Shown piece by piece: positions 11,756-61,704 of a stretch of 64,000 nucleotides of DNA (position 1 is the first letter of the stretch; each line of letters starts with the position of its first letter). Both the position numbers and the translations under genes were made by a program. This stretch comes from an uncultured Actinomycetota bacterium (GTDB taxonomy: Bacteria > Actinomycetota > Actinomycetes > Actinomycetales > Dermatophilaceae). Under the pieces are notes generated by a model. It was not told the origin of the DNA. It worked only from the letters and a program-made list of their open reading frames with translations, and did not search any database. The stretch covers positions 167,657 through 231,656 of the forward strand of contig CAWAGH010000007.1 of the NCBI GenBank assembly GCA_963781465.1, read 5' to 3'.

Positions 11756-13841
11756 TCAGGATCCGAGCGTGAGCAGTCCCCAGTACCGCCGGTAGCCGCC
11801 ATCGCTCGCGGTGTGGTCGGCGACGTACCGTTGTTGCTGACCCGCGAGCGGATCCCGGTCTGGCTGCCGGCCGCGGGGTCCACGTCGCTGACGATGAGGT
11901 TCGCGCCGAACTGGGCACCGGCATACATCGTGGTCAGCCCACCGGCTTCGGGGAGCCGGATGACCGACCACGGCACGGCGGCCTCGACGGTGTACCCGTT
12001 CGACGATGTCACCGCCGCCGCCTTGACCGCGGGCGCGCTCCGACCCGCGTCGACGTCGAACGTCCGCCCGGAACCCACGGTGACGGCGGCCACGGCGCCC
12101 CCACCGCTGGGCCCGACGGAGAGCGAGACGTCGCCGGGGCTGAGGTTGCTGCCGTCGGCGTTGGCCCCTGAGGAGCCGAACTGGAGGGTCACCGCGTCGC
12201 CCTGGAACAGCCTGGCCGGGTTCGCCGCGTTGGTCGTCGTCAGCTCGGGGTCGAGGACCTGGGCCAGCAGGTCGAGGCTCTCGTCGTCCCAGCCGAGCGA
12301 CCAGAGGCCCTTGAGGGTGACACTGCCAGTGCCGACCGAGTCGTCGCCGCGACCATCGACTGCTCGGGGCGGTACTCAGCCGCCGCGGGGAGAATTGGGG
12401 GCCCTCCACCGGGCGGTAGGTCACGGTGGCCGTCGCCACCACGGGCGGTGCGACGCCGCCCGGTGAGGTGGTGGGCGGCGAGGAGGTCGCTGCGGGCGTA
12501 GAAGCGGCGGCCGGCCCCGCCTCGGGCGACCCGCTCGAACCGGCGCGGGTCACCGCGAACACGACGACCGCGACGAGCACGGCGGCGACAGCCGCGGCGA
12601 TCCCGATGAGGCGTCCGCGACCCGGCCGACCGGCCGGTGTTGGCGACGGGGTGGCAGGAGGGGCGGGCGGCGTAGACGGAGCCGGTGCGGGCCTAACCGG
12701 AGCCGGTATGCCGGTCGCCGCCGGGGTCCGCGGAGCCACCCCTCGAACACCTGGCCGTCGGGCGCGTTGAGGTAGAGCACCGGCGTGGCCCACTCGCTGG
12801 CGTACCCGGCCAGCAGGCCCTTGCGTGCGCTCGTGACGGCCTGGTCGACCGGCATACCGTCGGCGAGCGCCGCGTAGAACTCACCGGTGAACGCGGTGGC
12901 GGCGCCGTCGCTGATAGGGAACTGCATCGCGACGACCGCCGTGCAGTCCTGCTGGACGAGACGCTGGGCCATGCCGCTGAACGGGTCTGCGGCTCCGACG
13001 CCGGCCGGACTGGCACGCGGTGAGGAACACCAGCCGCAGCGGGTCGTGGTCGTGGAGGTACGGGCCGAGGACCGCGGGTGGGACGGCGACGCTGCGGCCG
13101 TCCTGGTCGCAGAAGTAGAGGACGCTCTCCTGCTGGCCCTCGTCGAAGTCGCCGTGCCCGATGACGTGCAGGACGTGCACCTCGTGCGAGCGCAGCCACG
13201 CCGCGAGGTCGGTCGTCGTGGGTGACGGCAGCCGGTCCAGCTGGACCGCGCCGGACGACACGCGGGTGGCGAGCATGTCCTGCATCCGCCGCCACTCGGC
13301 CTCGACGTCGAGCTCCGGCAGGTCGGTCGGTGACGAGAGGACGACGAGGATCCGCAGCGGCCCCTCGACGGTCAGCGGGCGCGGCGGGTGCGGTACCTCG
13401 AGGTAGCGGACGAGCGGAGTGCGTTCGGACTGCGCCGGGTACGAGTTCGTACGCCGGTCGACGAGCAGCTCCCACGGCAGTCCGGCGATCTCCGGAGCGT
13501 CGGTGAGCTGCAGCCGCAGCCGCAGCCCTTCACCTGTTTCACGCGTGGCGTCCTGGCTGCGGGTCCAGGCGAGGAGGACCTCCTCGCCGAACACCGCCTC
13601 GAACAGCGCGCCACCGAGCTCGGTCGACGCCTTGAACGCGGATCGGCGGTCGCGCGGCGCATCTGGGAGCGGCCCGGGTCGAGCTTCAGGAGCAGGTCTC
13701 CAGCTCGGTCGCGTCGAACGGCATCGCGAACGTCGCGGTCGCGCCGGCACCGACCGGGCTCGCCGCGACGCGGGAGCGGAAGGTGCCGTCGCCCGCGGAC
13801 TCGACCAGCAGGTCGAAGTTCTCGTATGCGCGCGCGCTCAT
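11756..13841 (-). pseudogene. decayed paralog A of the CHAT - TM - CBM9-like membrane protein family
   Basis: ATG 13841 (GAGGA upstream) opens MSARAYENFDLLVESAGDGTF..., which stops after 51 codons. Homology to the intact neighbour then continues through frames mod3 = 2,0,1,0,1,2,0,1. It passes LLLKLDPGRS, LPWELL, HVLHVIGHGDF, LVFLTACQSG, MAQRLVQQDCTAVVAMQFPISD, the TM helix IGIAAAVAAVLVAVVVFAV, WSLGWDDESL, YTVEAAVPWSV and the ending WGLLTLGS*. This implies at least seven frameshifts. Confidence 0.85.
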
Positions 13842-13867
13842 CCTGGGTCCTCACCGCTCGCGATCGG

Positions 13868-15880
13868 TCACGGCACCAGGGTCAGCGTGCTCCAGTGGTC
13901 CCGCCAGGAGCCAAGGCTGCCTGACAACGTGGCCGCTGGGTTGTTGGACACGACATCCAGTAGGCCGGCGCCGGCCTTGTCGCCAGCTTGTCGTGCGTAG
14001 AGGTTCATGCCCATCTGGGTGTAGTCGGCCGCGGCTGAACGGGACAGGGCAGACCAGGGAATGCGACCCTCGATGGTGTAACCAGACCCCGTCCCGGTAC
14101 CGAAAACGTTGACGCCGACGATGGATAGCGCCGTCCCGAACGCCGATCCGGCCGGGTTGGCTCCGAGGATCTGGGTCACCGACTGGTTCGTCTTCTGGAG
14201 CGGGGTCGCGATGAGCATGACGTCCTCCGGCTCCAGACTGAGGTTGTCGTGCGAAGGCGTGGCGGTACCGAGGTCGAAGCTCACTCCCGTGTTCGCGAGA
14301 ATGCGGTTGGCGTCGGCCTGGTCCGGCCCCAGCTGGGACCCCGAGACCGTGACGAAGAAGTACAGCGCGTTGTCGTCCCATCCGAGCTCCCAGGTGGAGG
14401 ACGTCGTCGCGGCCGCTCCCAGGACCAGCTTGTCGGTGGTCACGGTGGGTATGCGCGGCCAGTCGTCGTCGCGGCCGTCGATGGTCGGCGGTGTCGAAAG
14501 ATGGGCCGCGGTGATGGCCGGTCCCTTGAGCGTCGTGCCCGACCCCGGCGGAGGATCGGGGGTGAACGACTTCCAGATCGCGAAGACGAACCACCCGACG
14601 GACGCCGCGATCATGAGACCGATGAGGGCCCACGTGAGTTTGCCCCTCTGTCGAGGCGGCGATGGTGTACGCGCTGGGGGCCGGGTAGGTCCGGGCTGGG
14701 ACAGTCCGGGCTGGGGTGGTCGGGGCTGGGGCGGTCGGCCTGGGTCGGGCGGTGCCGTCCGGGGTCCATCCAGCACCGGCAGCTCGAACAGGACACCGTC
14801 GTCGGATCGCAGGTAGAGCACCGGGGTGGCCCACTCGCGGGGAAAGTCCATGAGCAGGCTCTTACGCGCCCCGGCCATGGCCTGGTCGACGGGGTACCCC
14901 CTGGCGATGGCCCGGTAGAGCGCGCGGCTGAACGTGCTGGCGGCGCGGTCGCTGACCGGGAACTGCATCGCCGCGACCGCACTGACGCTGTTCCGCACCA
15001 GGCCCTGGGCCATGCCACCGAAGACGTCGTGCGCGTCGCCTCGTGCCGAGTGACAGGCGTTGAGGACCACCAGCTTCAGGTCATGGACGTCCTGCAGGAC
15101 GGACCCGAGCCGGTCGGCACCGATGGGGTTCTTGGTGGAGTAGTTCGTGCAGAAGTAGACGACCCCCTCCTGGGTCGACTCGGCGAAGTCGCCGTGTCCG
15201 ACGAAGTGGACGATGTGGACTGGTGAGTCACTGAGCCGCTCGAGGAGCCGACCCGGGGTAGCGGGCTGTGGGAGTCGCTCGAGCCGGACGAGGCCGCGCG
15301 CGACGAGCGGGGCGAGCTCCTCGTTGACGGCGCGCCACTCGTTCTCGAGATCGAGCTCCGGGAGGTCGGTGGGCGAGGCGAGCACGAAGAGAATGGTGAG
15401 CGGACCGTCGACCCGGAGCGCGCCCGAACCCCGATCGCCGAGGAAGCGGATGACCGGCGTCGCCTCTGACTGCGCGGGGTACTGGTTGAGTCGCGCGTTG
15501 TACAGCAGTTCCCAGGGCAGTCCGGCCAAGACTGGGGCATCCGTCAGCTTCAGCCGAAGGCGAAGACCGTGCTCCCGAGCCCGGACGTGTTCCTGGGAAC
15601 GGATCCAGGCCTCGTGGACGTCCCCGCTGAACGCCGCCGAGTAGAGCGCCGCACCGAGCTCACGAGAGGCCGTCTCTCGTGGATCGCCGGAGCCCCCGCG
15701 CATGTCGCTTCGTCCCGGGTCGAGCTTGAGGAGCAGGTTCTCCAGCCTGGTCTCGTCCAGAGGGAAGGTGAAGCGGGCCGCGGGGGTCTCGTTGGAGGGA
15801 CAGGCCGTGACGCGGGCCTGGTAGCCGCCGTGCTCCTCCTCGATGAGGAGGTCGAAGTTCTCGTACTGTCGAGAGGCCAC
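13868..15880 (-). CDS. CHAT-domain (caspase-like) protease fused to one TM helix and an extracytoplasmic CBM9/DOMON-like domain (paralog B, intact)
   Basis: GTG 15880 lies 11 nt after the upstream stop. N-terminus VASRQYENFDLLIE...LENLLLKLDPGRS. CHAT core with LAGLPWELL, catalytic His HIVHFVGHGDF and Cys LVVLNACHSA. A Pro-rich linker, RQRGK + WALIGLMIAASVGWFVFAIW (positive-inside rule puts CHAT in the cytoplasm). The C-terminal domain PTIDGRDDDWP...WELGWDDNALYFFV...GVSFDLG...GYTIEGRIPWSAL...GMNLY matches the carbohydrate-binding family 9-like pattern. Confidence 0.85.
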   Translation of the reverse strand: MASRQYENFDLLIEEEHGGYQARVTACPSNETPAARFTFPLDETRLENLLLKLDPGRSDMRGGSGDPRETASRELGAALYSAAFSGDVHEAWIRSQEHVRAREHGLRLRLKLTDAPVLAGLPWELLYNARLNQYPAQSEATPVIRFLGDRGSGALRVDGPLTILFVLASPTDLPELDLENEWRAVNEELAPLVARGLVRLERLPQPATPGRLLERLSDSPVHIVHFVGHGDFAESTQEGVVYFCTNYSTKNPIGADRLGSVLQDVHDLKLVVLNACHSARGDAHDVFGGMAQGLVRNSVSAVAAMQFPVSDRAASTFSRALYRAIARGYPVDQAMAGARKSLLMDFPREWATPVLYLRSDDGVLFELPVLDGPRTAPPDPGRPPQPRPPQPGLSQPGPTRPPARTPSPPRQRGKLTWALIGLMIAASVGWFVFAIWKSFTPDPPPGSGTTLKGPAITAAHLSTPPTIDGRDDDWPRIPTVTTDKLVLGAAATTSSTWELGWDDNALYFFVTVSGSQLGPDQADANRILANTGVSFDLGTATPSHDNLSLEPEDVMLIATPLQKTNQSVTQILGANPAGSAFGTALSIVGVNVFGTGTGSGYTIEGRIPWSALSRSAAADYTQMGMNLYARQAGDKAGAGLLDVVSNNPAATLSGSLGSWRDHWSTLTLVP

Positions 15881-15891
15881 GGTGCCTCGCC

Positions 15892-16779
15892 TCAGCCCTC
15901 GAGATGGAGCGTGCCCCAGATGCTGCGGAACGGGGCGTCGTTGCCCTTCCGTGCGGGGTTGTTGCTCACGAACGAGCTGAGCTCGCCCGCCTTGGAACCG
16001 GTCGCGACGGAGTCGCTGACGTTGAGGTTCATGCCGTACTCGTTGCCGCCGGAGATGTTCTCGGCGCCGAGGGTCGACCACGGGATGGCCGCCTCGAGGA
16101 GGTAGCCGTCGTCGGTCTTCGCGGTCGCCGCGCGCAAGCCCTGGATGGTGTTCGGGCCGCGGGTGAAGACCGAGCCGTTCGGCACGTTGATCGCGCTGAT
16201 CACCTTGTCGTCGTTGAAGTTCGCCGGTCCGAGCAGGACGTGCTTGTCGCCGGTCTCGAGCGAGGCGTTCGCGTTCTTCGGCAGCGCGGTCCCGAACTCG
16301 AAGCTCACCCCGTCGCCCTTGAACAGCTGGGACGTGTCCGCAGCGTGAGTCTGCAGTTCGGTCCGGTCGAGGACGTGCACGATGGCGTACAGGTTCGAGT
16401 CGTCCCAGGCCAGCGCCCAACGGCCGAGCAGACCGGTGTCGCTTCCCGCGATGAGCACGTTGCTGTCGAAGGTCGGGATGTCGCTCGGCCAGTCGGACGC
16501 GTCCCCGTTGATGGTCAGGCCGGTCGACAGGTGGACCGCTGAGATCTTCGGTCCGGTCAGGGTGCTCGCCTCTCCGCCGTTGTTGCGCGTCGGGTCGACC
16601 TTCTCCGGCAGCTGCGTGCCGTACCAGTAGAGGCCGCCGAACACGACGGCCACGACCGCCAGGACGATGGTGATGATGAGGCCCCACCGAGGCTTCTTCG
16701 GGTTCGGCGGGTTCACGTACCGCAGCGGCGCCTGGCCGGGACCACTCTGCCGCGGAGGCTGCTGCTGCTGGGTCGGCAC
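15892..16779 (-). CDS. TM + CBM9/DOMON-like domain protein; C-terminal half of paralog C/D, detached by a frameshift
   Basis: GTG-initiated ORF (V)PTQQQQPPRQ...KKPRWGLIITIVLAVVAVVFGGLYWY, then TINGDASDWP...WALAWDDSNLYAIV...GVSFEFG...GYLLEAAIPWSTL...GMNLNV...IWGTLHLEG*. Collinear with the C-terminal half of paralog B. Its frame stays open upstream into the P/Q repeat of the preceding ORF. Confidence 0.7.
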   Translation of the reverse strand: MPTQQQQPPRQSGPGQAPLRYVNPPNPKKPRWGLIITIVLAVVAVVFGGLYWYGTQLPEKVDPTRNNGGEASTLTGPKISAVHLSTGLTINGDASDWPSDIPTFDSNVLIAGSDTGLLGRWALAWDDSNLYAIVHVLDRTELQTHAADTSQLFKGDGVSFEFGTALPKNANASLETGDKHVLLGPANFNDDKVISAINVPNGSVFTRGPNTIQGLRAATAKTDDGYLLEAAIPWSTLGAENISGGNEYGMNLNVSDSVATGSKAGELSSFVSNNPARKGNDAPFRSIWGTLHLEG

Positions 16780-18458
16780 CGGTTGCGTCGGCTGCTGCGG
16801 CTGGTACGTGGGCTGCTGTGCTGGTAGGTGGGCTGCTGCGGCTGCTGGTAGGTGGGCTGCTGTTGCTGGTAGCTCGGCTGCGGCTGGTAGGTCGGCTGCG
16901 GCTGCGGCTGCTGATAGGAGGTCGGCTGCGGCCGCGGCTGCTGATAGGTCGGCTGGTATGCGGGGGCGCTGGTCGGAGGGGGCGTCGCCGTCGTCGTCGG
17001 CATGGCCTGGGTCACCGGCGGGGCGGTCGTGGCGCTCGTCGCCGCCACGCCGGCTGTGGTCGCGGCGGCCGCCGCAGCGGCCCCGCGGAGCGGGACGGGT
17101 TCCGGGGTGGGCTCTTCCGCTCTCGCAGCGGCCGGCTCAGGCTCGGGTGTGGGAACGACGGGCTTGAGCTCCTCGGGCTGCACGCCGACTGGCTTCAGGG
17201 CCGGCGGCTCGAGCAGGGCCTCCTCCGCGGACTTGCGTTTCGTCTCCGTCGTCTCCGCGTCGGTGGCCAGCGCCTCCTGGGCGCGCTCCTCGTCCTCGGC
17301 TTCGACCTCGGGCGCCGGCGTGGGAACGGCGGTCACCGCGGGCTGGGCCACGATGTGGTCGAACACGCGGCCGTCCGGAGCGCGAAGGAACAGCACCGGG
17401 GTGGCCCACTCCGCTGCATACTCCGCGATGAGCGCCTTGCGTGCGCTGGTGGCCGCCTGGTCGACAGGGAAGCCGTCGGCGAGCGCACCGTAGAACTCAC
17501 CGGTGAACGCGGTCGCCGCGCCGTCGGAGATGGGGAACTGCATGGCGACGACCGCGGTGCAGTCCTGCTGGACGAGGCCCTGTGCCATCCCGCTGAACGG
17601 GTCGGTGCTGTCGACGCGCGCCGACTGGCAGGCGTTGAGCAGGACCAGCCGCAGCGGGTCGTGGTCGCGGAGGTAGGGACCGAGGACCGTCGGGCTGACC
17701 TTGGTACTACGTCCGTAGCGGTCTTGGAAGTAGACGACGCCGTCCTGGATCCGGTCGTCGTAGTCGCCGTGTCCGATGAAGTGCAGGATGTGAACGTCGT
17801 TCTGCCGCAACCACGCCGACAGCGCCTGGATCGTCGGTGCCGGCAGCCGGTCGATCTTCACCGTGCCCTGGGCGACCTTCGCGGCGAGCGCATCCTCTAC
17901 GCGTCGCCACTCGGCCTCGACGTCCAGCTCCGGCAGGTCGGTGGGCGAGGAGATGACGACGAGGATGCGCAGCGCACCGTCGACCATCAGCGGCCGCGGC
18001 GGCTGGGGCACCTCGAGGTAGCGGACCACCGGAGTGCGTTCGGACTGCGCGATGAAGCTGTTGCCGCGCCGGTCGTAGAGCAGCTCCCACGGCAGGCCGG
18101 CGATCGACGGCGCGTCGGTGAGTCGCAGCCGCAGTCGCAGGCCGTCGCCGTGGTCGCGGGCGTAGTCCTGGGACCGCTGCCAGGTCAGCATGATGTCCTC
18201 GGAGAAGACGCTCTCGAAGAGCGGACCGCCGAGGTCCATCGACGCCTGGCTCTGTGGGTCGGAACCGGCCCGCCGGGTGCCACTGCGCCCCGGGTCGAGC
18301 TTGAGCAGCAGGTTCTCCAGCTGGGTGGCGTCGAACGGCAGCGTGAACTTGCCGCTAGGGCACTCTCCGAGTGGGCTCGTCGTCACCCGAGCGCGAAACG
18401 AATCGCCCTCCGCCGCTTCGAGAAGGAGGTCGAAGTTCTGATAGGTCCTGGAGGCCAT
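16713..18458 (-). CDS. CHAT-domain protease; N-terminal part of paralog C/D, truncated by a frameshift in its P/Q-rich linker
   Basis: ATG 18458 (AAAGGG upstream). MASRTYQNFDLLLEAAEG...LENLLLKLDPGRS, IAGLPWELL, His HILHFIGHGDY, Cys LVLLNACQSA, GMAQGLVQQDCTAVVAMQFPISD. An E/P/A-rich then PTYQQ-repeat linker runs out of frame near 16819-16820 into an Arg/Ser-rich tail, with a stop at 16713. Confidence 0.75.
   Translation of the reverse strand: MASRTYQNFDLLLEAAEGDSFRARVTTSPLGECPSGKFTLPFDATQLENLLLKLDPGRSGTRRAGSDPQSQASMDLGGPLFESVFSEDIMLTWQRSQDYARDHGDGLRLRLRLTDAPSIAGLPWELLYDRRGNSFIAQSERTPVVRYLEVPQPPRPLMVDGALRILVVISSPTDLPELDVEAEWRRVEDALAAKVAQGTVKIDRLPAPTIQALSAWLRQNDVHILHFIGHGDYDDRIQDGVVYFQDRYGRSTKVSPTVLGPYLRDHDPLRLVLLNACQSARVDSTDPFSGMAQGLVQQDCTAVVAMQFPISDGAATAFTGEFYGALADGFPVDQAATSARKALIAEYAAEWATPVLFLRAPDGRVFDHIVAQPAVTAVPTPAPEVEAEDEERAQEALATDAETTETKRKSAEEALLEPPALKPVGVQPEELKPVVPTPEPEPAAARAEEPTPEPVPLRGAAAAAAATTAGVAATSATTAPPVTQAMPTTTATPPPTSAPAYQPTYQQPRPQPTSYQQPQPQPTYQPQPSYQQQQPTYQQPQQPTYQHSSPRTSRSSRRNRCRPSSSSLRGRVVPARRRCGT
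16760..16960 (-). repeat. degenerate tandem P/T/Y/Q-coding repeat (CAGCAGCCSACSTACCAG-like units)
   Basis: The minus strand encodes AYQPTYQQPRPQPTSYQQPQPQPTYQPQPSYQQQQPTYQQPQQPTYQ, then after a 1-nt loss QQPTYQPQQPTQPVPTQQQQPP. The plus strand shows the repeated GGCTGCTG / CTGGTAGGT pattern. Confidence 0.8.
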
Positions 18459-18635
18459 CGCCGGCCCTTTCGCACGGTTCCGTCTACCTGAAATGGTGGA
18501 GCCGCGAGCTGACGCGATGATACCGCTGTAACCGCATCGGTATGTGGGCATTCGTTCCGTGGTCCGCCGCCCAGAACCCTTCCGCCGCGTCCGTCGCATA
18601 CCGGACGATGACTACATCGAGGATGCCCGGACGAC

Positions 18636-21155
18636 ATGCGGGGTATCTGCCCCTCGCTCGACGACTCCGTGAGGATCGTGGGACCCATGCCAGGAGTGGA
18701 CGCGTGGTGCGCGTTGGCCGACCAGGTCGTCGCCGCCAACGACCCCGCGATCGCGGACCGCGCGAAGACCGTGCTGGTCAGCCTCGGCGTGACCGACGAC
18801 GAGCGCGCCGAGCTCGCGGCGACGATCCGCGGGCGGGAGGACCCGGCCGGCCTGCTGCTCGCGCACGTGGTGGGGAACGCGCATGCCGACCTGTCCGACG
18901 ACGCACCGGTGACCAGCTCCGCGACGCCGGACCAGATGGACGCCGCCCTGGCGCTCTCGGGTCAGCTGCTCGCGGGTCCGGCCGCCACCATGGCGGCTCG
19001 CCTGGGTGCCGCCGCCCGAGACGTCCTGGCCCACCTGCCGGCCGATGCCGCCGGCTCGCTCGTCTCCGGCCTCGTCACCGCCTCGCTGTCGATGACCGAC
19101 CCGGCGATGCGGACCGCAGCCCTGACCACGGTCGTCGACGCCACCAGCGACGTGACGATGGGCCGGCTCCCGGTGGCGACCGTGGTGACCGAAGTGGTGC
19201 GTGCGGCCCCGCCCGACGCGGACCGCGAGCTGGTGGCGAAGCTGCTGGCCCGCACGTCGTCGTCGCGGCTGCTCTCGGGCGTGCTCGACTCCCTGCGTGA
19301 CGGCACCGAACCCCGGGCGGTCCTGGAGCTCCTCGAGCGGGTGGCCCTGCTGCGCGACACACAGGCACCACCGCCACCGACGGCGGCCGCCGACCGCGAG
19401 ATCGACCTCGGCGCAACGCCGGAGCCGTCCGACGTCACCTTCCGCGGCCCGGGCGGCGGCCACGCGGAGATCGCGCCCAGGCCGCCGCCGAAGCCCGCCG
19501 AACCCGCGCAGGAGCAAGCGCCCGGCGGAGTCCTGCGGTCCGCATACCCGCGCATCGACGTCGACGCCCATCGCGAGGTCCGCCCTGAGGTCGTCGTCCT
19601 CGACGAACCGTTCGACGTGGTCGTGGGGCTGGCCAAGTTCCAGGACGCGACGATCACCCAGACCGGTGCCATGCGGTTCATGGCCGGCGCAACGACCGAG
19701 CTCGAGCTGGTCCTCGTCTACGACCCGAACTCCCTGAAGGCGCAAGGCGATACGCGGCTGACCGTCAACGTCAGCGACGCCGACCCGTACCCCACGGCCA
19801 CGGTTTCGTTCGTCGCGACGTACCGGCCCGACCTGCCCAGCGAGCGGCGGATCGGCGTTCACTACATCGTCGGCGGCCAGGTGGTGGGCATCGCCTGGCG
19901 CAGCCTGATCGCCGTCCCCTACGCCAAGGACGTCGCGAACGCCCCCACGCCCCAAGCCGGTCCGGACGCACTGATGGAGCTCGAACCCCTGCTGGGCGTG
20001 GACCAACCCGAGCTCATCCTGTCGATCTGCGCCTCGGACGGTGCCGCCACGGGAGAGTTCATCTGGACGGCGTATGCGGCGGCCTCCGACGTGACGGTGC
20101 CGGACGCCCCGCGGTCCTCGAGGCTCGACTCCGACCTCCAGGGCTTCGTCACCGACATGCGGCAGACCGTCTCCCGCGCGCAGGGTCCGTACGAGGAGTA
20201 CCTGTCGCTGGCCGGAGCGGCCATCCGCATGGGGCGGGCGGTTCCGGACGGGATCCAAGGCGTGCTGCGGAAGGTCGTGGAGGACCCGGCGCGCACCACG
20301 GCGCCGACGATCCTGCTCCTGACCGAGGAGGTGACGCTGCCCTGGGAGCTCGCCGTCTTCGACCCACCGCTCGACAGCGCGTGGGGCGGGATCTCGCCCT
20401 TCCTCGGCTCCCACGCGGCGATCGCGCGATGGCCGCTCAGCGAGAAGCGTCCACGGCCGACACCGAGGTCGGCGGTCGCCGTGAAGCGGGCGGCGGTCCT
20501 CACGGCCGACTACACGGGCGTCATGGGGTGGGGTGAGCTGAAGGAGGCCCAGGAGGAGGCCGACTACGTCACCACGTTGTTCACCTCGACGTTCCCGGTG
20601 ATCCCCTCGATCGACGACGTCATCGACCTGCTCAGCGGGAACCCGTCCGCGGACGTCCTGCACGTTGCCCTGCACGGGCAGTTCGACGCACGAGGGGACG
20701 AGGGCGGCCTGGTCCTGCTCGCCAAGGACGCGGCCGGGAACCTCACGACGACCGCCCAGTTCCTCAAGCCGGACCAGGTCCTCAACGGGCGCCTCGACAA
20801 CGGTCCGTTCGTCTTCCTCAACGCCTGCCAGGTGGGTTCCGACAAGCGGGTGCTCGCCGACAACGGCGGGTTCGCCTCGACGTTGCTGCAGATCGGGGCC
20901 ACCGGGGTCGTGGCTCCACTGTGGAACGTCAACGACGTGACCGCCGCCGAGTGCGCCCGCGCCTTCTACGCCGCGACGTGGAGCGCGACCGGCGAGGGCG
21001 ACGCGTCGACCCGGGTGTCGGCGGCGGAGGCGGTTCGGTCGCTGCGGGCGAAGTACACCCAGTCGGCCGCACAGACCGCGACTCCCGGGATCGACGCGAC
21101 GCTGATCGCCTTCCAGGTGTTCGGCCACCCTCGGCTGCGCCTCGACCGAGGCTGA
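18636..21155 (+). CDS. large soluble CHAT-domain protein with uncharacterised N-terminal regions
   Basis: 839-aa ORF; ATG 18636, with an alternative ATG at 18687. About 240 aa of Ala/Leu-rich helical region, a Pro-rich linker, a beta-rich segment (PFDVVVGLAKF...ELELVLVYDP...TATVSFVATYRP). C-terminal CHAT domain with TLPWELAVF, His VLHVALHGQF and Cys FVFLNACQVG. No TM segment, TPR repeat or NTPase motif noticed. Confidence 0.8.
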   Translation: MRGICPSLDDSVRIVGPMPGVDAWCALADQVVAANDPAIADRAKTVLVSLGVTDDERAELAATIRGREDPAGLLLAHVVGNAHADLSDDAPVTSSATPDQMDAALALSGQLLAGPAATMAARLGAAARDVLAHLPADAAGSLVSGLVTASLSMTDPAMRTAALTTVVDATSDVTMGRLPVATVVTEVVRAAPPDADRELVAKLLARTSSSRLLSGVLDSLRDGTEPRAVLELLERVALLRDTQAPPPPTAAADREIDLGATPEPSDVTFRGPGGGHAEIAPRPPPKPAEPAQEQAPGGVLRSAYPRIDVDAHREVRPEVVVLDEPFDVVVGLAKFQDATITQTGAMRFMAGATTELELVLVYDPNSLKAQGDTRLTVNVSDADPYPTATVSFVATYRPDLPSERRIGVHYIVGGQVVGIAWRSLIAVPYAKDVANAPTPQAGPDALMELEPLLGVDQPELILSICASDGAATGEFIWTAYAAASDVTVPDAPRSSRLDSDLQGFVTDMRQTVSRAQGPYEEYLSLAGAAIRMGRAVPDGIQGVLRKVVEDPARTTAPTILLLTEEVTLPWELAVFDPPLDSAWGGISPFLGSHAAIARWPLSEKRPRPTPRSAVAVKRAAVLTADYTGVMGWGELKEAQEEADYVTTLFTSTFPVIPSIDDVIDLLSGNPSADVLHVALHGQFDARGDEGGLVLLAKDAAGNLTTTAQFLKPDQVLNGRLDNGPFVFLNACQVGSDKRVLADNGGFASTLLQIGATGVVAPLWNVNDVTAAECARAFYAATWSATGEGDASTRVSAAEAVRSLRAKYTQSAAQTATPGIDATLIAFQVFGHPRLRLDRG

Positions 21156-21176
21156 CCACACTCACGAAGGAGCGCG

Positions 21177-22664
21177 ATGGCTGAGAACCTGCGGCCCGAA
21201 GGAATCCCCGTCACCGTCGGGACCGTTCGGATCTCCACGCCCGGGCTGACCGGTCGCGTCGAGGTGTACCAACCGGGGACCGCCGGGATGCGCGGCGCGG
21301 AGAGCTCGACCGAAGCGTTCCGCCGGGCCCTCGACCAGGGCGGCGTGGTGGAACAGCTCACCGTCGAGATCACCGGCCAGCGCGAGCTGGACAACGCCGG
21401 TGGGAGCCGCGGCGGTGGGGGCGGTAGCGAGATCGTGGTCGAGGTCCCGCCCCCGGGCACCGGCAACGGCCAGCTGCTCCTGTATGCGGCCGAGGACGGT
21501 TCGCTCTCGTGGCACCTTCCGGACGACGTGCCACCGGAGCAGGTGGTCAGCCGCGGCGGAGACCGGCGCACGTACCGGCTGCCGCGGGAGGTGGTCCTGG
21601 CTGACCCGGCCTCAGCCGGTGGGCAGCGCGGCATCCTCGGGGCGGTCGGGTCGAAGCTGTTCAAGATCCTCGTGTTCCCGCTCATCGACCCGATCCTCGG
21701 CAAGGTCGGCGACTACTTCGCCGCTCGGTGGGAGCAGAAGAACCGGCGCAACCTCGTGCGGTGGTTCGACCCGGGCGACTACCAGCGCTCCGACGTCGTA
21801 GCCTTCGCGGCGCCGGACTGGACGCGGGTGAGCGGCGGCACGGCGCTCCTGTTCATCCACGGCACGACCGCGCAGTCCAACACGGCGTTCGACCAGCTCC
21901 CGGCCGAGACCCTGACCGAGCTTGGACGTCGTTACGGCGGAAGGGTGTTCGCGCTCGACCACTTCACCATCTCGGTGACGCCGCACGACAACGTGACGTG
22001 GCTGGCCGAGCAGCTCGCGGCGCTCGGAGGCGGTTCTCCGCTCACGCTCGACCTCGTCAGCCACTCGCGCGGCGGCCTCGTCGGTCGCGTCCTCGCCGAA
22101 CGAGCCGCCGACGTCGGGCTGGCCGGCAAGGTCACGGTGCGCAACTTCGTCATGGTCGCCTCGCCCAACGCCGGAACGGCGCTCGCCGACAAGGCGCACC
22201 TGTCGCAGCTGATGGACCGCGTCACCGACCTCGCCCAGTTCATCCCCGACGCCGGCGTGACCGACGTCGTCGGGCTGGTGCTGTCGATCCTCAAGCAGCT
22301 CACCGTCGGCGCGTACGGCGGCCTCGAGGGCGTCATGGCGATGGACCCGCAGGGCGAGTACCTCAAGGCGTTCAACAGCACACCGGGCTCGACGGCGACC
22401 TACCGGGCGATCGGGTCGAACTACCAGCCGGCGCGCGGCGCGTCACTGGCCCGCATCGCCCGGAACGCCGGCACCGACTTCGTGTTCCAGAAGGCGGACA
22501 ACGACCTCGTCGTCCCCACCAACGGGGCATACGAGGTCGACGGTGTGGTGGGGTTCCCGATCGCCGACCCCCTGGTCTTCCCCGCCGAGGCGGGCGTCGA
22601 CCACGCGTCGTACTTCACCCGTCCTGAGGTCTCGGCGAAGCTCCTGGAGTGGCTCCCGGGGTGA
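21177..22664 (+). CDS. alpha/beta-hydrolase fold protein (lipase/esterase-like) with a ~190-aa N-terminal extension of unknown function
   Basis: ATG 21177 preceded by GAAGGAG, 21 nt after the CHAT gene stop. Hydrolase core: LLFIHGT (oxyanion region), nucleophile elbow LVSHSRGGLV, candidate Asp in KADNDLVVP, candidate His in GVDHASYF. The N-terminal part (VTVGTVRISTPGLTGRVEVY...GGGGG...LLLYAAEDGSLSW) matches nothing I recognise. Confidence 0.75.
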   Translation: MAENLRPEGIPVTVGTVRISTPGLTGRVEVYQPGTAGMRGAESSTEAFRRALDQGGVVEQLTVEITGQRELDNAGGSRGGGGGSEIVVEVPPPGTGNGQLLLYAAEDGSLSWHLPDDVPPEQVVSRGGDRRTYRLPREVVLADPASAGGQRGILGAVGSKLFKILVFPLIDPILGKVGDYFAARWEQKNRRNLVRWFDPGDYQRSDVVAFAAPDWTRVSGGTALLFIHGTTAQSNTAFDQLPAETLTELGRRYGGRVFALDHFTISVTPHDNVTWLAEQLAALGGGSPLTLDLVSHSRGGLVGRVLAERAADVGLAGKVTVRNFVMVASPNAGTALADKAHLSQLMDRVTDLAQFIPDAGVTDVVGLVLSILKQLTVGAYGGLEGVMAMDPQGEYLKAFNSTPGSTATYRAIGSNYQPARGASLARIARNAGTDFVFQKADNDLVVPTNGAYEVDGVVGFPIADPLVFPAEAGVDHASYFTRPEVSAKLLEWLPG

Positions 22665-23641: not shown

Positions 23642-23935
23642 GGTGGACACGCCGAAACTGGTTCGTGACTTTCTGTTGTCCACAGGTGGTGGACGACGAT
23701 CCGGGCACGTCGCCCCGCACGAGCGGCGCCGAACCTGGGAGAACCATGCACCGGTCCTCCCCAGGTTGTCCCCAGGCTGTTCCGGCGTGGTGCACACCGT
23801 TGTCCACACCTGGTCCACAGGATGGGTTTGTACCTCGACCCCGGCACCCCTAGCGTGACAGCGCGCCAGCGTCGCCCAGCCCGAACCACCCTGATCCGGT
23901 GGCTGTCGGCGGTCGATGGTGCCATGAGTGGACAC
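23642..23935. promoter_or_regulatory. cluster of DnaA-box-like 9-mers in the dnaB upstream region
   Basis: Perfect TTGTCCACA at 23676-23684 and 23800-23808. One-mismatch boxes TTGTCCCCA (23766-23774) and TGGTCCACA (23811-23819). Two-mismatch boxes on the opposite strand around GTGGAC at 23642-23650, 23688-23696 and 23927-23935. Confidence 0.6.
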
Positions 23936-23996
23936 CAGTTCGAACGGCCAGCTCGGAAAGGAACGCGAGGCGCGGTGGCGACCAGGTGACCCTCAC

Positions 23997-26444
23997 ATGA
24001 CGATCCAGGAGCTCTTCCCACAACGGACAGACGGGCCGACGGACGACCGGCTCCCGCCCCAGGACCTGCACGCGGAGCAGTCAGTCCTCGGCGGCATGCT
24101 GTTGTCCAAGGACGCCATCGCCGACTGTGTCGAGGTACTCCGGTCGGCCGACTTCTACCGCCCGCAGCACGAGGCGATCTTCGATGCGGTCCTCAGCCTC
24201 TACGGCCGGGGTGAGCCGGCCGACGCGATCACCGTGTCCGACGAGCTCGGCAAGCGCGGTGACCTCGGTCGGGTCGGCGGCCAGGCCTACCTCCACCAGC
24301 TGATCTCCTCGGTGCCGACCGCGGCCAACGCCGGCTACTACGCGCAGATCGTCGCCGAGCGCGCGGTGCTGCGGCGGCTGGTCGAGGCGGGCACCAAGAT
24401 CGTCCAGCTCGGCTACGCCCAGGGTGGGGGCGACGTCGAGGACATCGTCAACGCGGCCCAGGCCGAGGTCTACGCCGTCGTCGACAAGCGGGGCGGCGAG
24501 GACTACCACCGGCTCGGCGACATCCTCGAGATGACCGTCGACGAGATCGAGGTCGCGTCCGGCAAGTCCGGCGAGATGACGGGTGTGCCGACCGGATTCA
24601 CCGACCTCGACTCGCTCACCAACGGGCTGCACCCGGGCCAGATGATCGTCGTCGCGGCAAGGCCCGCTATCGGGAAGTCGACTCTCGGACTCGACATCGT
24701 CCGGTCGGCGTCGATCCGGCACAACCTCGCCTCGGTCATCTTCTCGCTCGAGATGAGCAAGACCGAGATCACCATGCGGCTACTCTCCGCCGAGGCCGGG
24801 ATCCAGCTGCAGCACATGCGCAAGGGCACCATGCGTGAGGAGGACTGGACCCGCCTGGCGTCGACGATGGGCCGGGTGTCCGAGGCGCCGCTGTTCATCG
24901 ACGACTCACCGAACATGAACCTCATGGAGATCCGGGCCAAGTGCCGACGGCTCAAGCAGCGCGACAACCTCAAGCTGGTCGTCATCGACTACCTCCAGCT
25001 GATGTCCTCCGGCAAGCGAGTCGAGTCGCGGCAGCAGGAGGTCTCGGAGTTCTCGCGAGCGCTCAAGCTGCTCGCCAAGGAGCTCGAGGTCCCGGTCGTC
25101 GCGATCTCCCAGCTCAACCGTGGTCCGGAGCAGCGCACCGACAAGAAGCCGCAGATGTCCGACCTTCGCGAGTCGGGGTGCCTGACTGCGGAGACGCGGA
25201 TTTTGCGGGCGGATACCGGCGCCGAGATGTCGATGGGCGAGCTGCTGGCCAGTGGGGAGACCGACGTCCCCGTCTGGTCGCTCGACGAGTCGCTGCGCTA
25301 CGTCCGCCGGCACCTGACCCACGTCTTCTCGACCGGTACGCGTCCGGTATTCCGACTGACGCTCGCCTCGGGGAAGCAGGTCCGGGCAACCGAGAACCAC
25401 CCCTTCCTCACGTATGCGGGCTGGCGCGCACTGGGTGACCTGCGCACCGGCGACCGGCTGGCGGTGCCTCGTCACGTGCCCGCCCCGGATCGGTTCGAGC
25501 ACCCGCTCAGCGACGAAGAGGTCCGGATGGGCGCCGTCCTGATGTCGTCTCGGACGACGGCCCGGGCATCCGCGCGGACGCAGGTCCTCGGCTGCCGCCT
25601 CGGCTTCGACGTCATGCCGGCGGCGTCGCGGCGGCTGCCGCCGGATATCGCATCGTTCCCCAAGCGACAGATCGCGCTGTTCCTCCAGAGTCTCTGGGCC
25701 GTCGATGGCCGGACCACCGTCAACACCGAAGGGACGGACGGACGCATCGTCTTGCGTGCGAAGTCACGCCAGCTCCTCGACGACGTCGTGATGTTGCTCT
25801 TGCGGTTCGGCATCTCGGGGGAGGTGTTGGCGCGTCGACAGGGCTGGGAGCTGCACATCCCCGGTGTCGACGACCAGCGTCGGTTCCTTCAGGAGGTAGC
25901 CGTCCATGGGGCGTTGTCGGAAGATGCCCATCAGCTGCTCGCCATCGTCCGGGCCAGGCGTGAGCGAGCGTCGGCAGTCGTCCGCGGCGCGGGCGGAGAC
26001 GACGTTGTCGACCGTGAGGGCGCGGCGGGATGGCCACTCAGCAGCGACGACATCGCCGACGAGCTGGTCGAGGAGGGCGCCTTTGACCTCGAGCGAGCAG
26101 CCGAGCTCCTGGCGAGCCTGGATCTCGACCTCGAGGCCTCCAACGACGTGCTGTGGGACGAGGTCGTCGCCGTCGAGCCGGACGGTGTCGAGGAGGTCTT
26201 CGACGCCACCGTTGCGGGCGGCCACAACTTCGTGGCCAACGGGATCGCCGTGCACAACTCGATCGAGCAGGACGCTGACATGGTGATCCTGTTGCACCGC
26301 GAGGAGGCCTACGAGCGGGAGAGCCCACGCGCCGGTGAAGCCGACCTCATCGTGGCCAAGCACCGCAACGGGCCCACCGACACGATCGTGCTGGCGTTCC
26401 AGGGCCACTACAGCCGGTTCACCAACATGGCGCCCAGCTTCTGA
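23997..26444 (+). CDS. dnaB: replicative DNA helicase DnaB (intein-containing precursor)
   Basis: ATG 23997 with AGGTGA 8 nt upstream. PPQDLHAEQSVLGGMLL, Walker A AARPAIGKST, VVIDYLQLM, VVAISQLNRGPEQR. The host sequence resumes after the intein with SIEQDADMVILLHREEAY...HRNGPT. The mature extein product would be about 455 aa. Confidence 0.95.
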   Translation: MTIQELFPQRTDGPTDDRLPPQDLHAEQSVLGGMLLSKDAIADCVEVLRSADFYRPQHEAIFDAVLSLYGRGEPADAITVSDELGKRGDLGRVGGQAYLHQLISSVPTAANAGYYAQIVAERAVLRRLVEAGTKIVQLGYAQGGGDVEDIVNAAQAEVYAVVDKRGGEDYHRLGDILEMTVDEIEVASGKSGEMTGVPTGFTDLDSLTNGLHPGQMIVVAARPAIGKSTLGLDIVRSASIRHNLASVIFSLEMSKTEITMRLLSAEAGIQLQHMRKGTMREEDWTRLASTMGRVSEAPLFIDDSPNMNLMEIRAKCRRLKQRDNLKLVVIDYLQLMSSGKRVESRQQEVSEFSRALKLLAKELEVPVVAISQLNRGPEQRTDKKPQMSDLRESGCLTAETRILRADTGAEMSMGELLASGETDVPVWSLDESLRYVRRHLTHVFSTGTRPVFRLTLASGKQVRATENHPFLTYAGWRALGDLRTGDRLAVPRHVPAPDRFEHPLSDEEVRMGAVLMSSRTTARASARTQVLGCRLGFDVMPAASRRLPPDIASFPKRQIALFLQSLWAVDGRTTVNTEGTDGRIVLRAKSRQLLDDVVMLLLRFGISGEVLARRQGWELHIPGVDDQRRFLQEVAVHGALSEDAHQLLAIVRARRERASAVVRGAGGDDVVDREGAAGWPLSSDDIADELVEEGAFDLERAAELLASLDLDLEASNDVLWDEVVAVEPDGVEEVFDATVAGGHNFVANGIAVHNSIEQDADMVILLHREEAYERESPRAGEADLIVAKHRNGPTDTIVLAFQGHYSRFTNMAPSF
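25179..26258 (+). mobile_element. DnaB intein (360 aa) with a probable degenerate LAGLIDADG homing-endonuclease insert
   Basis: Starts RESG|CLTAETRIL and ends FVANGIAVHN|SIEQD. Block B ATENHPFLTYAGWRALGDL and the C-terminal WDEVVAVEPDGVEEVFDATVAGGHNFVANGIAVHN closely resemble the Synechocystis DnaB mini-intein. The central ~200 aa keeps one LAGLIDADG-like motif (ALFLQSLWAVDGR; LLLRFGISG), while the expected first motif looks degenerate. Confidence 0.9.
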
Positions 26445-33052: not shown

Positions 33053-34246
33053 TCAGTCGAACAGGTCGCGCTCCATCGCGTCGACCACCCAGCTCCAGGC
33101 CAGCCGCTCCTGCTCCAGCCTGAGCGACGGCGCATACACGTCCTCGACGAGGTCCGTGTACAACGCCTGTTCGGCCGCCTGGAGGTGGTCGAGCCGAGCC
33201 CGGGTGGGCGACGACTCGGAACCCCACCGGTCTCGGTGCGCCAACAGGGTCGGGCGGTCCATCAGGAAGGAGCGGGTCTGGCGGACGCCCGCCCGCAGGG
33301 TGTTGAGGATCGCGAAGCCGTGGGTGTCGAGGTCGCCGGAGTAACTCACCCTGGGAGCCTCCCGGACCCACGGCACACGGGCGAGGCGGCCGGCGTAGTA
33401 GCCGGCGCCCCAGATCACCACGCCCTCGCGTGGAACCTCAACCGACAGGTACGTGACCTCGTTCTCGACCACCACCACGTGCTGGACCGCCACGTGGACC
33501 CGTGCCATCTCGTCGAGGCGAAGGGCGACCTCGCCGATCGGACCCGGCAGCCCGGTGAACCCCTGGTCGAAGCGCATCCGCACCAGCCGCGGCGGCTCCT
33601 CGAACCCGTAGCGCCGGGCGAAGCCGTCGCCCCGTGAGGCGTCCTCGGCCACCCGGTCCGCCGGCACCGTCAGGTCGAGGAGCGCCGCGATGACCCCACG
33701 ATGTCGCGCCACGAACTTCGTGTCCACCCCGGGGGCCTCGATCTGCCTTACGTACAGCCCACGGCCGCCGTGCCCCGCCAGCCACCACACGGCGTCGAGG
33801 ACGCCAGGCCACTCGGACGCCAGCTCGATGGCCCGGGCGGCGTGCTCGGCCACCCACGGCATCAGGTCCGGGTCGGTCCCCTCGGTGAGGGCGACAACCT
33901 GGTCCAACCGGCCCACCTCCGGCAGGACCCCGAGCACCCGCCAGGCCTGTTCGAACGTCGACACGGCGGCCCTCGCCGGAAGCTCGTTACGTCCGACTGC
34001 CCGCCCGCCGACGGCACGCATCGTCAGGGTGTAGGCCCCACCGGCCCGGCTGCCCTTGACCAGCGCGCGGTTCCACGCCTGCACCCGGCCCAGATCCGCG
34101 GTGATCTCTCCCGCCGAGGGGCCGCGGATCGGCACCTCGACGACCGGGCAGGGACGACCGGCTACGTACGCGCTGAGCAGGCTGCCGTCCACCCACCGCC
34201 GCCGCACACGGGCGGTGATGTCCTCAGGCGTCGTCCACGACGTCAC
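33053..34246 (-). CDS. jetD: Wadjet JetD / MksG-like nuclease subunit (DUF3322 + DUF2220 Toprim-like)
   Basis: 397 aa. GTG 34246 overlaps the jetC stop (GTGA). Toprim-like acidic motifs VVVENEVTYLS and SYSGDLDTHGFAIL. Last gene of the four-gene operon. Confidence 0.85.
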   Translation of the reverse strand: MTSWTTPEDITARVRRRWVDGSLLSAYVAGRPCPVVEVPIRGPSAGEITADLGRVQAWNRALVKGSRAGGAYTLTMRAVGGRAVGRNELPARAAVSTFEQAWRVLGVLPEVGRLDQVVALTEGTDPDLMPWVAEHAARAIELASEWPGVLDAVWWLAGHGGRGLYVRQIEAPGVDTKFVARHRGVIAALLDLTVPADRVAEDASRGDGFARRYGFEEPPRLVRMRFDQGFTGLPGPIGEVALRLDEMARVHVAVQHVVVVENEVTYLSVEVPREGVVIWGAGYYAGRLARVPWVREAPRVSYSGDLDTHGFAILNTLRAGVRQTRSFLMDRPTLLAHRDRWGSESSPTRARLDHLQAAEQALYTDLVEDVYAPSLRLEQERLAWSWVVDAMERDLFD

Positions 34247-37647: not shown

Positions 37648-38264
37648 CGGTCGCCCTCCGGAGTCGCGCCGGTGGCCGCCGACGCGTACTCCGCCAGCCT
37701 TGCGTCCAGCTCGCCGAGCCACTGCGCGTCGACGAAGGCCTTGATGATGCGGCGCACCTCCCAGGCCGGCGGTGTGCCGGGGACCGGCCGGAGGAAGTCC
37801 AGCTCCACCGCCTTGGCGATCGCGCGGTCAATCTGGTCGACGACGCGCGCCTCGTTGGTGGAGCTGGCGAGGAAGGTCCGCAGGTCGTCGACGAGCCGGT
37901 CGCGGGTCACCACGAGGCGGCCCTCCCCGCTCGTCGCGTCGAACTCGGCCACCGCCTTGCGCAGCAGGGCGAGCAGGAGGCTCGTGTGGAACGACAGGCG
38001 GTGGCGGGGGACGAGGCGGGGGATCGGCAGGTCGGGGTCCTCGGGCTTCGAGCGCAGGTATGCGTAGCCCTCCGCCTCGTCGATGACGACGACCAGCCCC
38101 ACCACGTCCATATGGTCTCGAAGCTGGTTCCGCAGCCGCAGGACCTGTCGCCAGACGGCGTCTTGCCCTTCGCGGTAAACCACACCCTTCATCAGCGCCA
38201 CTGCCGCCATCGACAGCGAGGGGGCTTCCGGGGTCGCGCCGGGCGTCGTTGGGCTCGGGGTCAT
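37644..38264 (-). CDS. jetB: Wadjet JetB / MksE-like subunit (DUF4194)
   Basis: ATG 38264 overlaps the jetA stop (ATGA). 206 aa. ALMKGVVYREGQDAVWRQVLRLRNQLRDHMDVVGLVVVIDEAEGYAYLR is typical of DUF4194. Confidence 0.85.
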   Translation of the reverse strand: MTPSPTTPGATPEAPSLSMAAVALMKGVVYREGQDAVWRQVLRLRNQLRDHMDVVGLVVVIDEAEGYAYLRSKPEDPDLPIPRLVPRHRLSFHTSLLLALLRKAVAEFDATSGEGRLVVTRDRLVDDLRTFLASSTNEARVVDQIDRAIAKAVELDFLRPVPGTPPAWEVRRIIKAFVDAQWLGELDARLAEYASAATGATPEGDR

Positions 38265-39733: not shown

Positions 39734-39945
39734 CGTCGGCCTCCGGGCACCCACGCCGTCGACAGGCGTCCCGGGTGCTGCGGCCACCTTACGATCCCAC
39801 CCCGACACCGAGGCGAAGGCTCCCTCCGGAGGGTTCAGCGGGGGTCAGAACACTTTCAGTCGCTGGGCATGGCGCGCGCCGTCCCGGACAGACGTGAGGA
39901 CCTCGAGCCGTGAGAACGCCGGCCGCGACGGCTGACGACGACCAG

Positions 39946-61601: not shown

Positions 61602-61704
61602 CCCGGCTTTGCCGCCTTCCAACCCGGAGAAGTATCAAGTTTTGGGCCCTCTACGCCCGGAAAGCTTCACACAACTCCGGGTTGGAAGCGGGTAGGCCGG
61701 GTCA
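61599..61704. repeat. palindromic intergenic element, copy 2, embedded between two convergent stop codons
   Basis: Outer 9-bp arms TGACCCGGC (61599-61607) and GCCGGGTCA (61696-61704) contain both stop codons. Inner 14-bp stem CTTCCAACCCGGAG (61616-61629) pairs with CTCCGGGTTGGAAG (61675-61688). The right arm CACAACTCCGGGTTGGAAGCGGG is identical over 23 nt to copy 1. Confidence 0.8.

Follow-up and report, generated by a model that had tools for sequence, protein, structure and literature searches.

What could four genes for caspase-like CHAT proteases have in common with a single α/β-hydrolase gene, next to which they are encoded? This question is raised by an 11-kb island (positions 11756–22664) within a stretch of 64,000 nucleotides (nt) from an uncultured soil actinobacterium of the Dermatophilaceae (contig CAWAGH010000007.1); the whole stretch is referred to below as the window, and its G+C content is about 71%. 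Its best protein matches, which include Lapillicoccus-like metagenome-assembled genomes (MAGs) at 92–97% identity, assign it to Intrasporangiaceae. Combination of third-position GC reading-frame analysis with tblastn searches using an intact paralog resolved the island into five genes, A to E, which form two divergent units, C-B-A on the reverse strand and D-E on the forward strand. All four CHAT genes noticed in an earlier sequence-only reading of this DNA were recovered: the four pairs of catalytic motifs are present in the translations, and all CHAT domains score above the Pfam cut-off (PF12770, 24 bits). The sole gene of the island that lacks a CHAT domain, E, encodes according to Pfam a hydrolase of the DUF7379 family, and the island is thus not a gasdermin operon. 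The answer that we favor, with slightly more confidence than doubt, is that the island is a protease-gated effector module, in which the soluble CHAT protein D unlocks the latent hydrolase E.

The D-E pair and its relatives

E (21177–22664, forward strand, 495 aa) matches the DUF7379 profile (PF24096) over its entire length (positions 1–191 of 191) with a score of 177.8 bits (cut-off 33). It begins 21 nt after the stop codon of D (21155), behind a ribosome-binding site, GAAGGAG, so that the succession of a soluble CHAT protein and an α/β-hydrolase proposed previously is upheld. The scan of one genome per GTDB species for relatives of E yielded 54 loci, which were annotated with profiles of B, D and E; 53 of them could be evaluated, the remaining one (L029) being cut by the end of its contig. 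E is adjacent to a CHAT gene (at most 233 nt downstream of it) or fused to a caspase or CHAT domain in 52 of these 53 loci, which is the conserved co-occurrence that the sequence-only reading had named as a test; L035 is the only locus in which E has no caspase-fold partner. A D-like CHAT gene ends 17–233 nt upstream of E in 44 of the 54 loci, which belong to Intrasporangiaceae, Nocardioides, Jiangellaceae, Nocardia, Kineosporia, Actinokineospora, Rhizocola, Microbacteriaceae and Streptomyces, as well as to one MAG each of Gemmatimonadales and Thermodesulfobacteriota. Seven loci (from Rhodothermota, Solirubrobacter, Gemmatimonadota and Acidobacteriota) encode E as the C-terminal half of an open reading frame (ORF) of 1,128–1,238 aa, counted from stop to stop; an N-terminal Peptidase_C14 domain was placed by Pfam in two of these fusions (L037 and L039), and the assignment of the other five rests on the length of the ORF and on their clustering with this pair. 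Finally, CHAT and E matches share a single ORF in a fragment from Planctomycetia (L058). The same tendency is seen in the family at large: 28 of the best 150 DUF7379 representatives are long fusions, of which 21 contain a caspase-fold domain (Peptidase_C14 in 16, CHAT in 5), without any further recurrent enzymatic domain. According to hhalign (probability 0.3%), D is unrelated to the N-terminal portion of the caspase-E fusions; CHAT and C14 domains were therefore recruited independently, and DUF7379 joined caspase-fold proteases more than once. Hydrolases of this family occur in at least seven phyla, and the exhaustive profile search revealed 884 cluster representatives (at 50% identity) with E-values ≤ 1e-30 and 2,881 with E-values ≤ 1e-10; no mention of DUF7379 was found in the papers of the literature searched.

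The catalytic residues of E are intact and almost perfectly conserved among the 54 loci. The oxyanion motif HGT (residues 228–230) is found in 53–54 of them, the nucleophile S297 (in the HSRGG motif) in 53, and the remaining members of the triad, D443 and H476, in all 54. The structural model of E (mean pLDDT, i.e. predicted local distance difference test score, of 65) exhibits a β-rich N-terminal region (aa 1–195) followed by a lipase-like α/β-hydrolase domain. Foldseek matched it to bacterial lipases and thioesterases, and the closest sequence of solved structure is 7x2p, described as a 'putative lipase', i.e. a generic lipase only. The N-terminal region contains three R-G dipeptides that are candidate cleavage sites, all in segments modeled with pLDDT < 50. 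The strongest candidate is R151-G152 (21627–21632, forward strand; low-pLDDT segment 140–156), in which both residues are conserved in 54 of 54 loci, the caspase fusions included, and which is also present in a hydrolase-CHAT fusion from Ruegeria that is only 31% identical. At R78-G79 (21408–21413, forward strand; segment 73–83) the arginine is conserved in 49 of 54 loci and the next residue is G, A or S in 50, while at R126-G127 (21552–21557, forward strand; segment 124–127) the arginine is found in 45 and the glycine in 43.

D (18636–21155, forward strand, 839 aa) is a soluble CHAT protein, whose probable start is however not the upstream limit of the longest reading frame at 18636, but the ATG at 18687 (MPGVDAW), 51 nt further in, which matches the N-terminal consensus of the homologs; residues 1–17 are modeled with pLDDT < 50. 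The CHAT domain scores 63.6 bits and exhibits the motifs VALHGQF (with H680) and LNACQV (with C731); neither H680 nor C731 varies among 23 homologs. From the motifs and the model, and not from a column-by-column mapping to the Pfam profile, these residues are likely to constitute the His-Cys dyad of the caspase-hemoglobinase fold. According to the AlphaFold2 model (mean pLDDT 77.8), the CHAT domain (558–838) is preceded by helical repeats (19–241), a disordered Pro-rich linker (243–297), a β-sandwich (300–496) and three helices (501–548). No match was found in the sequence search of solved structures with D. The Foldseek comparison of the model identified Csx29, a TPR-CHAT protein, as the best match (E-value ~1e-9 over ~400 aligned columns for its chains), followed by separase, DdvA and gingipain. 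The helical repeats at the N-terminus of D and its structural resemblance to TPR-CHAT proteins speak against the previous claim that the combination of genes matches no described system. The N-terminal part of D varies between lineages, and the family profile matches distant homologs only from about position 250 onwards. Within the otherwise hypervariable linker there is a small island of conservation, the aromatic-R-G motif F269-R270-G271 (19440–19448, forward strand), identified in the alignment of homologs (R in 21 and G in 20 of 23) and considered a candidate processing site. Where the locus also encodes a membrane CHAT partner (see below), 22 of 30 D proteins have the motif, as compared with 3 of 16 from loci without one, these three being on contigs too short to judge. 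Neither lipid-binding nor acylation features were found in D.

The company that relatives of E keep in other phyla bears on another point of the sequence-only reading, namely the absence of known conflict partners. It holds for the island: Pfam searches identified no Cas, gasdermin, vWA/MoxR or STAND genes in the island or in the scanned flanks, the window contains no CRISPR array, and none of its tandem repeats is CRISPR-like; every gene of the island and of its flanks could be accounted for. It does not hold for the relatives of E, which are found beside caspase-nSTAND1-WD40 proteins, CHAT-TPR proteins and a Septu-like PtuA/PtuB pair. The latter is encoded on the megaplasmid of Ruegeria pomeroyi DSS-3, a model bacterium that has been studied well (NC_006569.1, 129335–136139; L059), where SPO_RS20450, a 966-aa DUF7379-CHAT fusion, has an IS5 transposase upstream and is followed by the Septu-type genes of a SIR2-PtuA-like ATPase and of a PtuB-like protein. 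The conjugative plasmid pNLP1 of Nostoc (NZ_CP026693.1, 109107–118280; L060) encodes a 3,057-aa protein composed of Peptidase_C14, DUF7379, nSTAND1 and periplasmic-binding domains. In L046 a caspase-nSTAND1-WD40 protein follows directly downstream of the caspase-DUF7379 fusion, and a Ser/Thr kinase-TPR protein of ~900–1,000 aa recurs near such fusions in six non-actinobacterial loci (L037, L045, L046, L047, L050 and L054). All-against-all clustering of the neighborhood ORFs, filtered by third-position GC, revealed no fourth conserved component, only lineage-specific synteny and the non-actinobacterial kinase-TPR protein.

The membrane CHAT proteins

The reverse-strand unit had been described as three tandem paralogs with a CHAT domain, a transmembrane (TM) helix and a CBM9-like domain. 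The architecture could be confirmed, but only B reads through, while A and C are frameshifted. B (13868–15880, reverse strand, 670 aa) comprises a CHAT domain (aa 75–354, 95.3 bits; motifs HIVHFVGHGDF at 15217–15185 and LNACHSA at 15064–15044), a single TM helix, WALIGLMIAASVGWFVFAIW (nt ~14561–14632), and a CBM9-like domain (aa ~467–668), in which CBM9_1 (PF06452, cut-off 23.4 bits) scores 34.3 bits over the first 56 profile positions only. The helix is preceded by the positively charged RQRGK, which according to the positive-inside rule predicts a cytoplasmic CHAT domain and an extracytoplasmic CBM9. Neither D nor E exhibits a signal peptide or a TM segment, so both proteins are predicted to share the cytoplasm with the protease domain of B. 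C (15892–18458, reverse strand) exhibits the same order of domains with an additional linker; its CHAT domain (85.6 bits; HILHFIGHGDY at 17792–17760, LNACQSA at 17639–17619) is in frame -3 (16713–18458), and CBM9_1 (46.1 bits, profile positions 17–182) in the C-terminal frame -2 (15892–16779). Judging from its sequence, the CBM9-like ectodomain of B and C is of a carbohydrate-binding type. A (~11756–13841, reverse strand) was delineated with tblastn using B and an intact ortholog (L010, 663–2798), and retains a CHAT fragment of 43.5 bits with the motifs HVLHVIGHGDF (13177–13145) and LTACQSG (13024–13004).

Compared with its ortholog, A has at least seven one-base indels over 2.1 kb (at ~13697, 13637, 12999, 12742, 12360/12338 and 11830), and three reading frames are needed to follow it with tblastn. 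The indels lie mostly outside homopolymers, which makes sequencing error a less likely cause, and the absence of indels from D and E, 4 kb together, makes it very probable that A is a genuine pseudogene. In C, the indel map against its intact, 825-aa ortholog in L019 (2186–4660) places a single net frameshift near 16818. It falls within a tandem-repeat tract (16790–16955, periods of 18–44 nt) that encodes the P/Q/Y-rich linker of C, and could reflect slipped-strand variation or an assembly error. Split genes are also found in related long-read MAGs (the ortholog of A in L001, that of C in L010, D and a second B-type gene in L062), which suggests that the frameshift of C may be an artefact of assembly.

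The birth-and-death pattern of these paralogs suspected from the sequence is borne out by the relatives. Close relatives have between 1 and 3 membrane CHAT genes, and divergence is faster in the ectodomains than in the proteases: B and C are 53% identical in the CHAT part and 33% from its end to the C terminus, ectodomain included. Among 26 sequences of B-type proteins, at least 85% retain the H..H..GHG and LNAC motifs. Of the 54 loci, 31 contain a B-type gene, and it is divergent to D-E in Intrasporangiaceae, Nocardioides and Ornithinimicrobium, with CBM9 as the ectodomain in Intrasporangiaceae and PD40 (a TolB-like propeller) in Nocardioides. This divergent arrangement was found in three unrelated contexts, namely MatE/dnaB, ilvD/aldolase (Knoellia locipacati) and relA/secDF. 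CHAT-TM proteins, some of them with TPR repeats, also flank the caspase-E fusion in Rhodothermota, Gemmatimonadota and Acidobacteriota. Sampled from the B side, 3 of 4 homologs adjoin D-E, and a more distant CHAT-thioredoxin protein (P0272) does not. The D-E pair is thus the conserved core of the module, and the membrane CHAT protein is an accessory of some lineages.

Genomic neighborhood

The two units are separated by a short divergent intergenic region (18459–18635, 177 nt, or up to 18686 if D starts at 18687), which may be a control region common to C-B-A and D-E. It contains no match to the sigma-70 consensus, and the promoter and terminator scan of the island was uninformative. The locus lies between MatE/glycosyltransferase genes and dnaB, and this placement is kept across Lapillicoccus-like genomes. 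In two close relatives an AbiEi_4 (antitoxin-like) gene, absent from the window, is inserted between MatE and the glycosyltransferase (L001, 2784–3755; L062, 13078–14049). The DnaB replicative helicase (23928–26444, forward strand) appears to be interrupted by an intein, as its translation exhibits the Cys...His-Asn/Ser junction signature; its orthologs have Intein_splicing or LAGLIDADG matches in Pfam, and a relative in L003 is an intein-free DnaB of 540 aa. The nearest defense system is a Wadjet/JetABCD-like operon on the reverse strand (33053–39844), which begins ~10 kb past the end of E and encodes JetD (DUF3322 + JetD_C, 33053–34393), the SbcC-type ATPase JetC (34243–37827), a DUF4194/MksE-like protein (~37644–38170) and JetA (DUF3375, 38261–39844). 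With the exception of this operon, the remainder of the window is metabolic, regulatory or housekeeping, and a dense defense island could be ruled out. The sigma-70-family genes of the window are at least ~5.6 kb away from the island and appear unrelated to it, and a phytoene/squalene synthase and a phytoene-desaturase-like amine oxidase (59674–63249) look like carotenoid genes.

Proposed mechanism and alternative explanations

How might a protease and a hydrolase act as one module? We propose that D and E would be co-transcribed, and that E would be a cytoplasmic lipase-like hydrolase kept latent by its conserved N-terminal region. D would then cut E after arginine at one or more of the conserved R-G sites, with R151-G152 as the first candidate, followed by R78 and R126, and the released E would attack an ester or lipid substrate, with growth arrest or cell death as the outcome. 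As a more speculative accessory layer, the B-type membrane CHAT proteases could be outside-in sensors that read the environment via a swappable ectodomain (CBM9 here, PD40 in Nocardioides), and may activate D through a cut in its linker, at aromatic-R270-G271, which would free the N-terminal helical domain. The biological role might be in defense, in stress or in programmed death; a role in conflict or programmed death is plausible in view of the turnover of paralogs, the swapping of ectodomains, the partners found in other phyla and the vicinity of the Wadjet-like operon.

A number of observations weigh against this proposal. The model of E is only of moderate quality; six R-G dipeptides in a protein of 495 residues are roughly the number expected by chance, and one of them, R298-G299 in the nucleophile elbow, is as invariant as R151-G152, so the conservation of R-G may be structural. 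Phylogeny confounds the association of the linker motif of D with B. Since 23 of 54 loci lack B, it is not essential to the D-E pair, and two of the three B-type copies are broken as read in this genome. E is not homologous to the sole characterized protease-activated hydrolase, and PADLOC has no model for either D or E. The phage collection contained no tblastn match to E, and the matches in the plasmid collection cover at most 74% of it; together with the housekeeping genes that surround the locus and its genus-level synteny in Lapillicoccus-like genomes, the lack of a phage-borne homolog argues against a classical mobile defense island.

Or perhaps the island serves the envelope or development and has nothing to do with death or defense? 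A HetF-like membrane CHAT protease could process division or envelope proteins depending on the state of the wall polysaccharides, while D and E would mature or remodel lipids or lipoproteins. The stable position between MatE/glycosyltransferase and dnaB, the housekeeping flanks in Knoellia and in the PD40-type locus, the lack of any mobile-element signature in the window, and ectodomains of carbohydrate-binding and TolB-like types are all in agreement with such a function. The similarity to HetF itself carries less weight: it is the best NCBIfam match of the CHAT domain of B (NF045509, 80.5 bits), but the match is limited to the CHAT region and far below the equivalog cut-off of 1200 bits, and hence reflects the common CHAT domain only. 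A housekeeping function fits poorly with the turnover of copy number, the pseudogenes and the swapping of ectodomains, and likewise with fusions of DUF7379 to C14 and CHAT domains that arose repeatedly and independently, with the nSTAND1/WD40/TPR partners and with the Septu-like neighbor. We regard this explanation as unlikely, though as the likeliest of the alternatives.

The protease-gated module in its boldest version would be a two-tier, outside-in caspase cascade that operates without a nucleoside triphosphatase (NTPase). In this version a membrane initiator CHAT protease would use its exchangeable CBM9 or PD40 ectodomain to read a cue outside the cell, e.g. damage to wall or capsule glycans, or contact with a phage, and cut D, the soluble executioner, at the aromatic-R|G motif of its linker; D would cut the DUF7379 pro-lipase at R|G sites, and hydrolysis of membrane lipids would kill or arrest the cell. 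The bacterial immune sensors known to date are mostly cytoplasmic. An envelope-facing input into a caspase-like pathway would be a new mode of sensing, and membrane CHAT proteins with ligand-binding domains outside the cell would be unusual. If true, the cascade would amount to a receptor-caspase-effector pathway comparable to extrinsic apoptosis, and DUF7379 to a large new family of protease-licensed death effectors; we consider the complete scheme doubtful, and somewhat more so than a housekeeping function.

The opposite view, that two independent systems happen to be neighbors, would make D-E self-contained, with the N-terminal domain of D as its sensor, and would leave the CHAT-TM-CBM9 proteins to act on other substrates. 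The lineage-variable N-terminal region of D is what could be expected of a sensor domain, and the 23 D-E or caspase-E loci without a B-type gene, as well as distant CHAT-TM proteins that occur alone (e.g. P0272), are in line with this view. At odds with it are the divergent arrangement of B and D-E across a short intergenic region in three unrelated contexts, in Intrasporangiaceae, Nocardioides and Ornithinimicrobium, the presence of CHAT-TM proteins at the flanks of caspase-E fusions in three further phyla, and the proportion of B-side homologs that adjoin D-E. It appears to us improbable, a little below the cascade.

The coupling between D and E may also be reversed or non-proteolytic, with E upstream, as a source of a lipid-derived signal or by a deacylation that activates the proteases, and with the CHAT proteins as effectors that degrade cell proteins broadly. 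The substrate of E is unassigned, the fusions indicate joint action and not its order, and Evans et al. (bioRxiv 10.1101/2025.11.14.688446) report defense by a caspase-like protease that has no dedicated effector. Nevertheless, in the sole characterized pair of a caspase and an α/β-hydrolase it is the hydrolase that is cleaved as the effector, E possesses an additional N-terminal region whose flexible loops bear an invariant R-G, as a pro-region would, and neither lipid binding nor acylation is indicated by features found in D; we regard reversed coupling as very unlikely. Least credible of all, and hardly to be entertained, is the idea that the locus is decaying and non-functional in this genome: it could be argued from the indels of A and C, the latter perhaps only an artefact within a tandem repeat, but none of B, D and E is truncated, all three have high third-position GC (0.74–0.92) and intact catalytic residues, and the orthologs in sister genomes, including Lapillicoccus-like MAGs, are intact and 92–97% identical.

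Comparison with known systems

The PADLOC scan of B, C, D and E returned weak, generic-CHAT matches for B and C (SAVED_CHAT, BovA) and none for D and E, which indicates that the island is not a catalogued defense system. MoxR AAA+, vWA or STAND partners, typical for the conflict systems described by Kaur et al. 2020 (PMC7159879), were not found in the island or the scanned flanks, although distant relatives of E do have nSTAND1-WD40 caspases adjacent or fused to them. DdvA, a transmembrane anti-sigma factor (8rot in the PDB) and a structural match of D (E-value 5e-6), resembles the membrane proteins of the island in that its CHAT domain is part of a single-pass membrane signaling protein; it differs in that the island has no anti-sigma domain and no partner extracytoplasmic function (ECF) sigma factor beside it.

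HetF of Anabaena is a CHAT protease required for heterocyst differentiation and cell division, and is not known to carry a CBM9 ectodomain or to act with a hydrolase. Despite being the best NCBIfam match for its CHAT domain, HetF was rejected as the identity of B, given the score and the lack of a cyanobacterial context. In the SAVED-CHAT/PCaspase cascade of type III-B CRISPR systems, one caspase-fold protease activates a second one. The idea of a protease that activates a protease is shared with the hypothetical cascade proposed here, and the PADLOC SAVED_CHAT model weakly matches B and C in their CHAT domains (1e-14 to 1e-18); unlike that system, the island contains neither a SAVED domain nor CRISPR-Cas, and its candidate first tier consists of membrane proteins with ectodomains. 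In the type III-E Craspase, Cas7-11/gRAMP is associated with the TPR-CHAT protein Csx29, which cleaves Csx30. Csx29 resembles D in having helical repeats N-terminal to CHAT, and provides its best structural matches, but Cas7-11/gRAMP, Csx30/Csx31 and a CRISPR array are missing from the window, and the partner of D is a hydrolase.

The sequence-only reading held that the combination of genes matches no described system. This claim is not supported, since Kaur et al. 2020 (PMC7159879), who found caspase-superfamily domains in conflict systems always with a neighboring α/β-hydrolase and considered the pairing obligatory, had already predicted it, and it was demonstrated for another hydrolase family in a 2025 preprint by Evans et al. 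(bioRxiv 10.1101/2025.11.14.688446), in which LcCaspase of Lysobacter capsici cleaves LcHydrolase at two sites, R73|G and R117|G, into fragments that are lethal to E. coli. The likeness is considerable: in both cases the gene of a caspase-fold cysteine protease adjoins that of an α/β-hydrolase with a lipase-like fold and unassigned substrate, conserved R-G dipeptides are found in flexible segments of the hydrolase (cut sites in LcHydrolase, candidates in E), and the described pair is also reported to be widespread in Actinobacteria. The hydrolases nevertheless belong to different families, LcHydrolase being 296 aa long and E 495 aa, with its 195-aa N-terminal region. Homology between E and LcHydrolase (WP_060410396) was considered and rejected: hhalign gives 21.8% over 38 columns around the nucleophile elbow, and LcHydrolase has no match to PF24096. 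The Lysobacter protease is a C14-type caspase fused to STAND or WD40 domains, while D is a CHAT protein with a helical-repeat and β-sandwich N-terminus, and the layer of membrane CHAT proteins with ectodomains is an addition of the present module. Thus, the principle of a protease and its effector has a precedent, while the hydrolase family, the CHAT partner, the putative membrane CHAT sensors and the lack of an NTPase are new. The tie of DUF7379 to caspase-fold proteases, almost without exception, gives this family a testable role as a protease-licensed effector, and would bring a second family of α/β-hydrolases, unrelated to the first, under the protease-effector principle that is emerging for bacterial immunity and programmed death.

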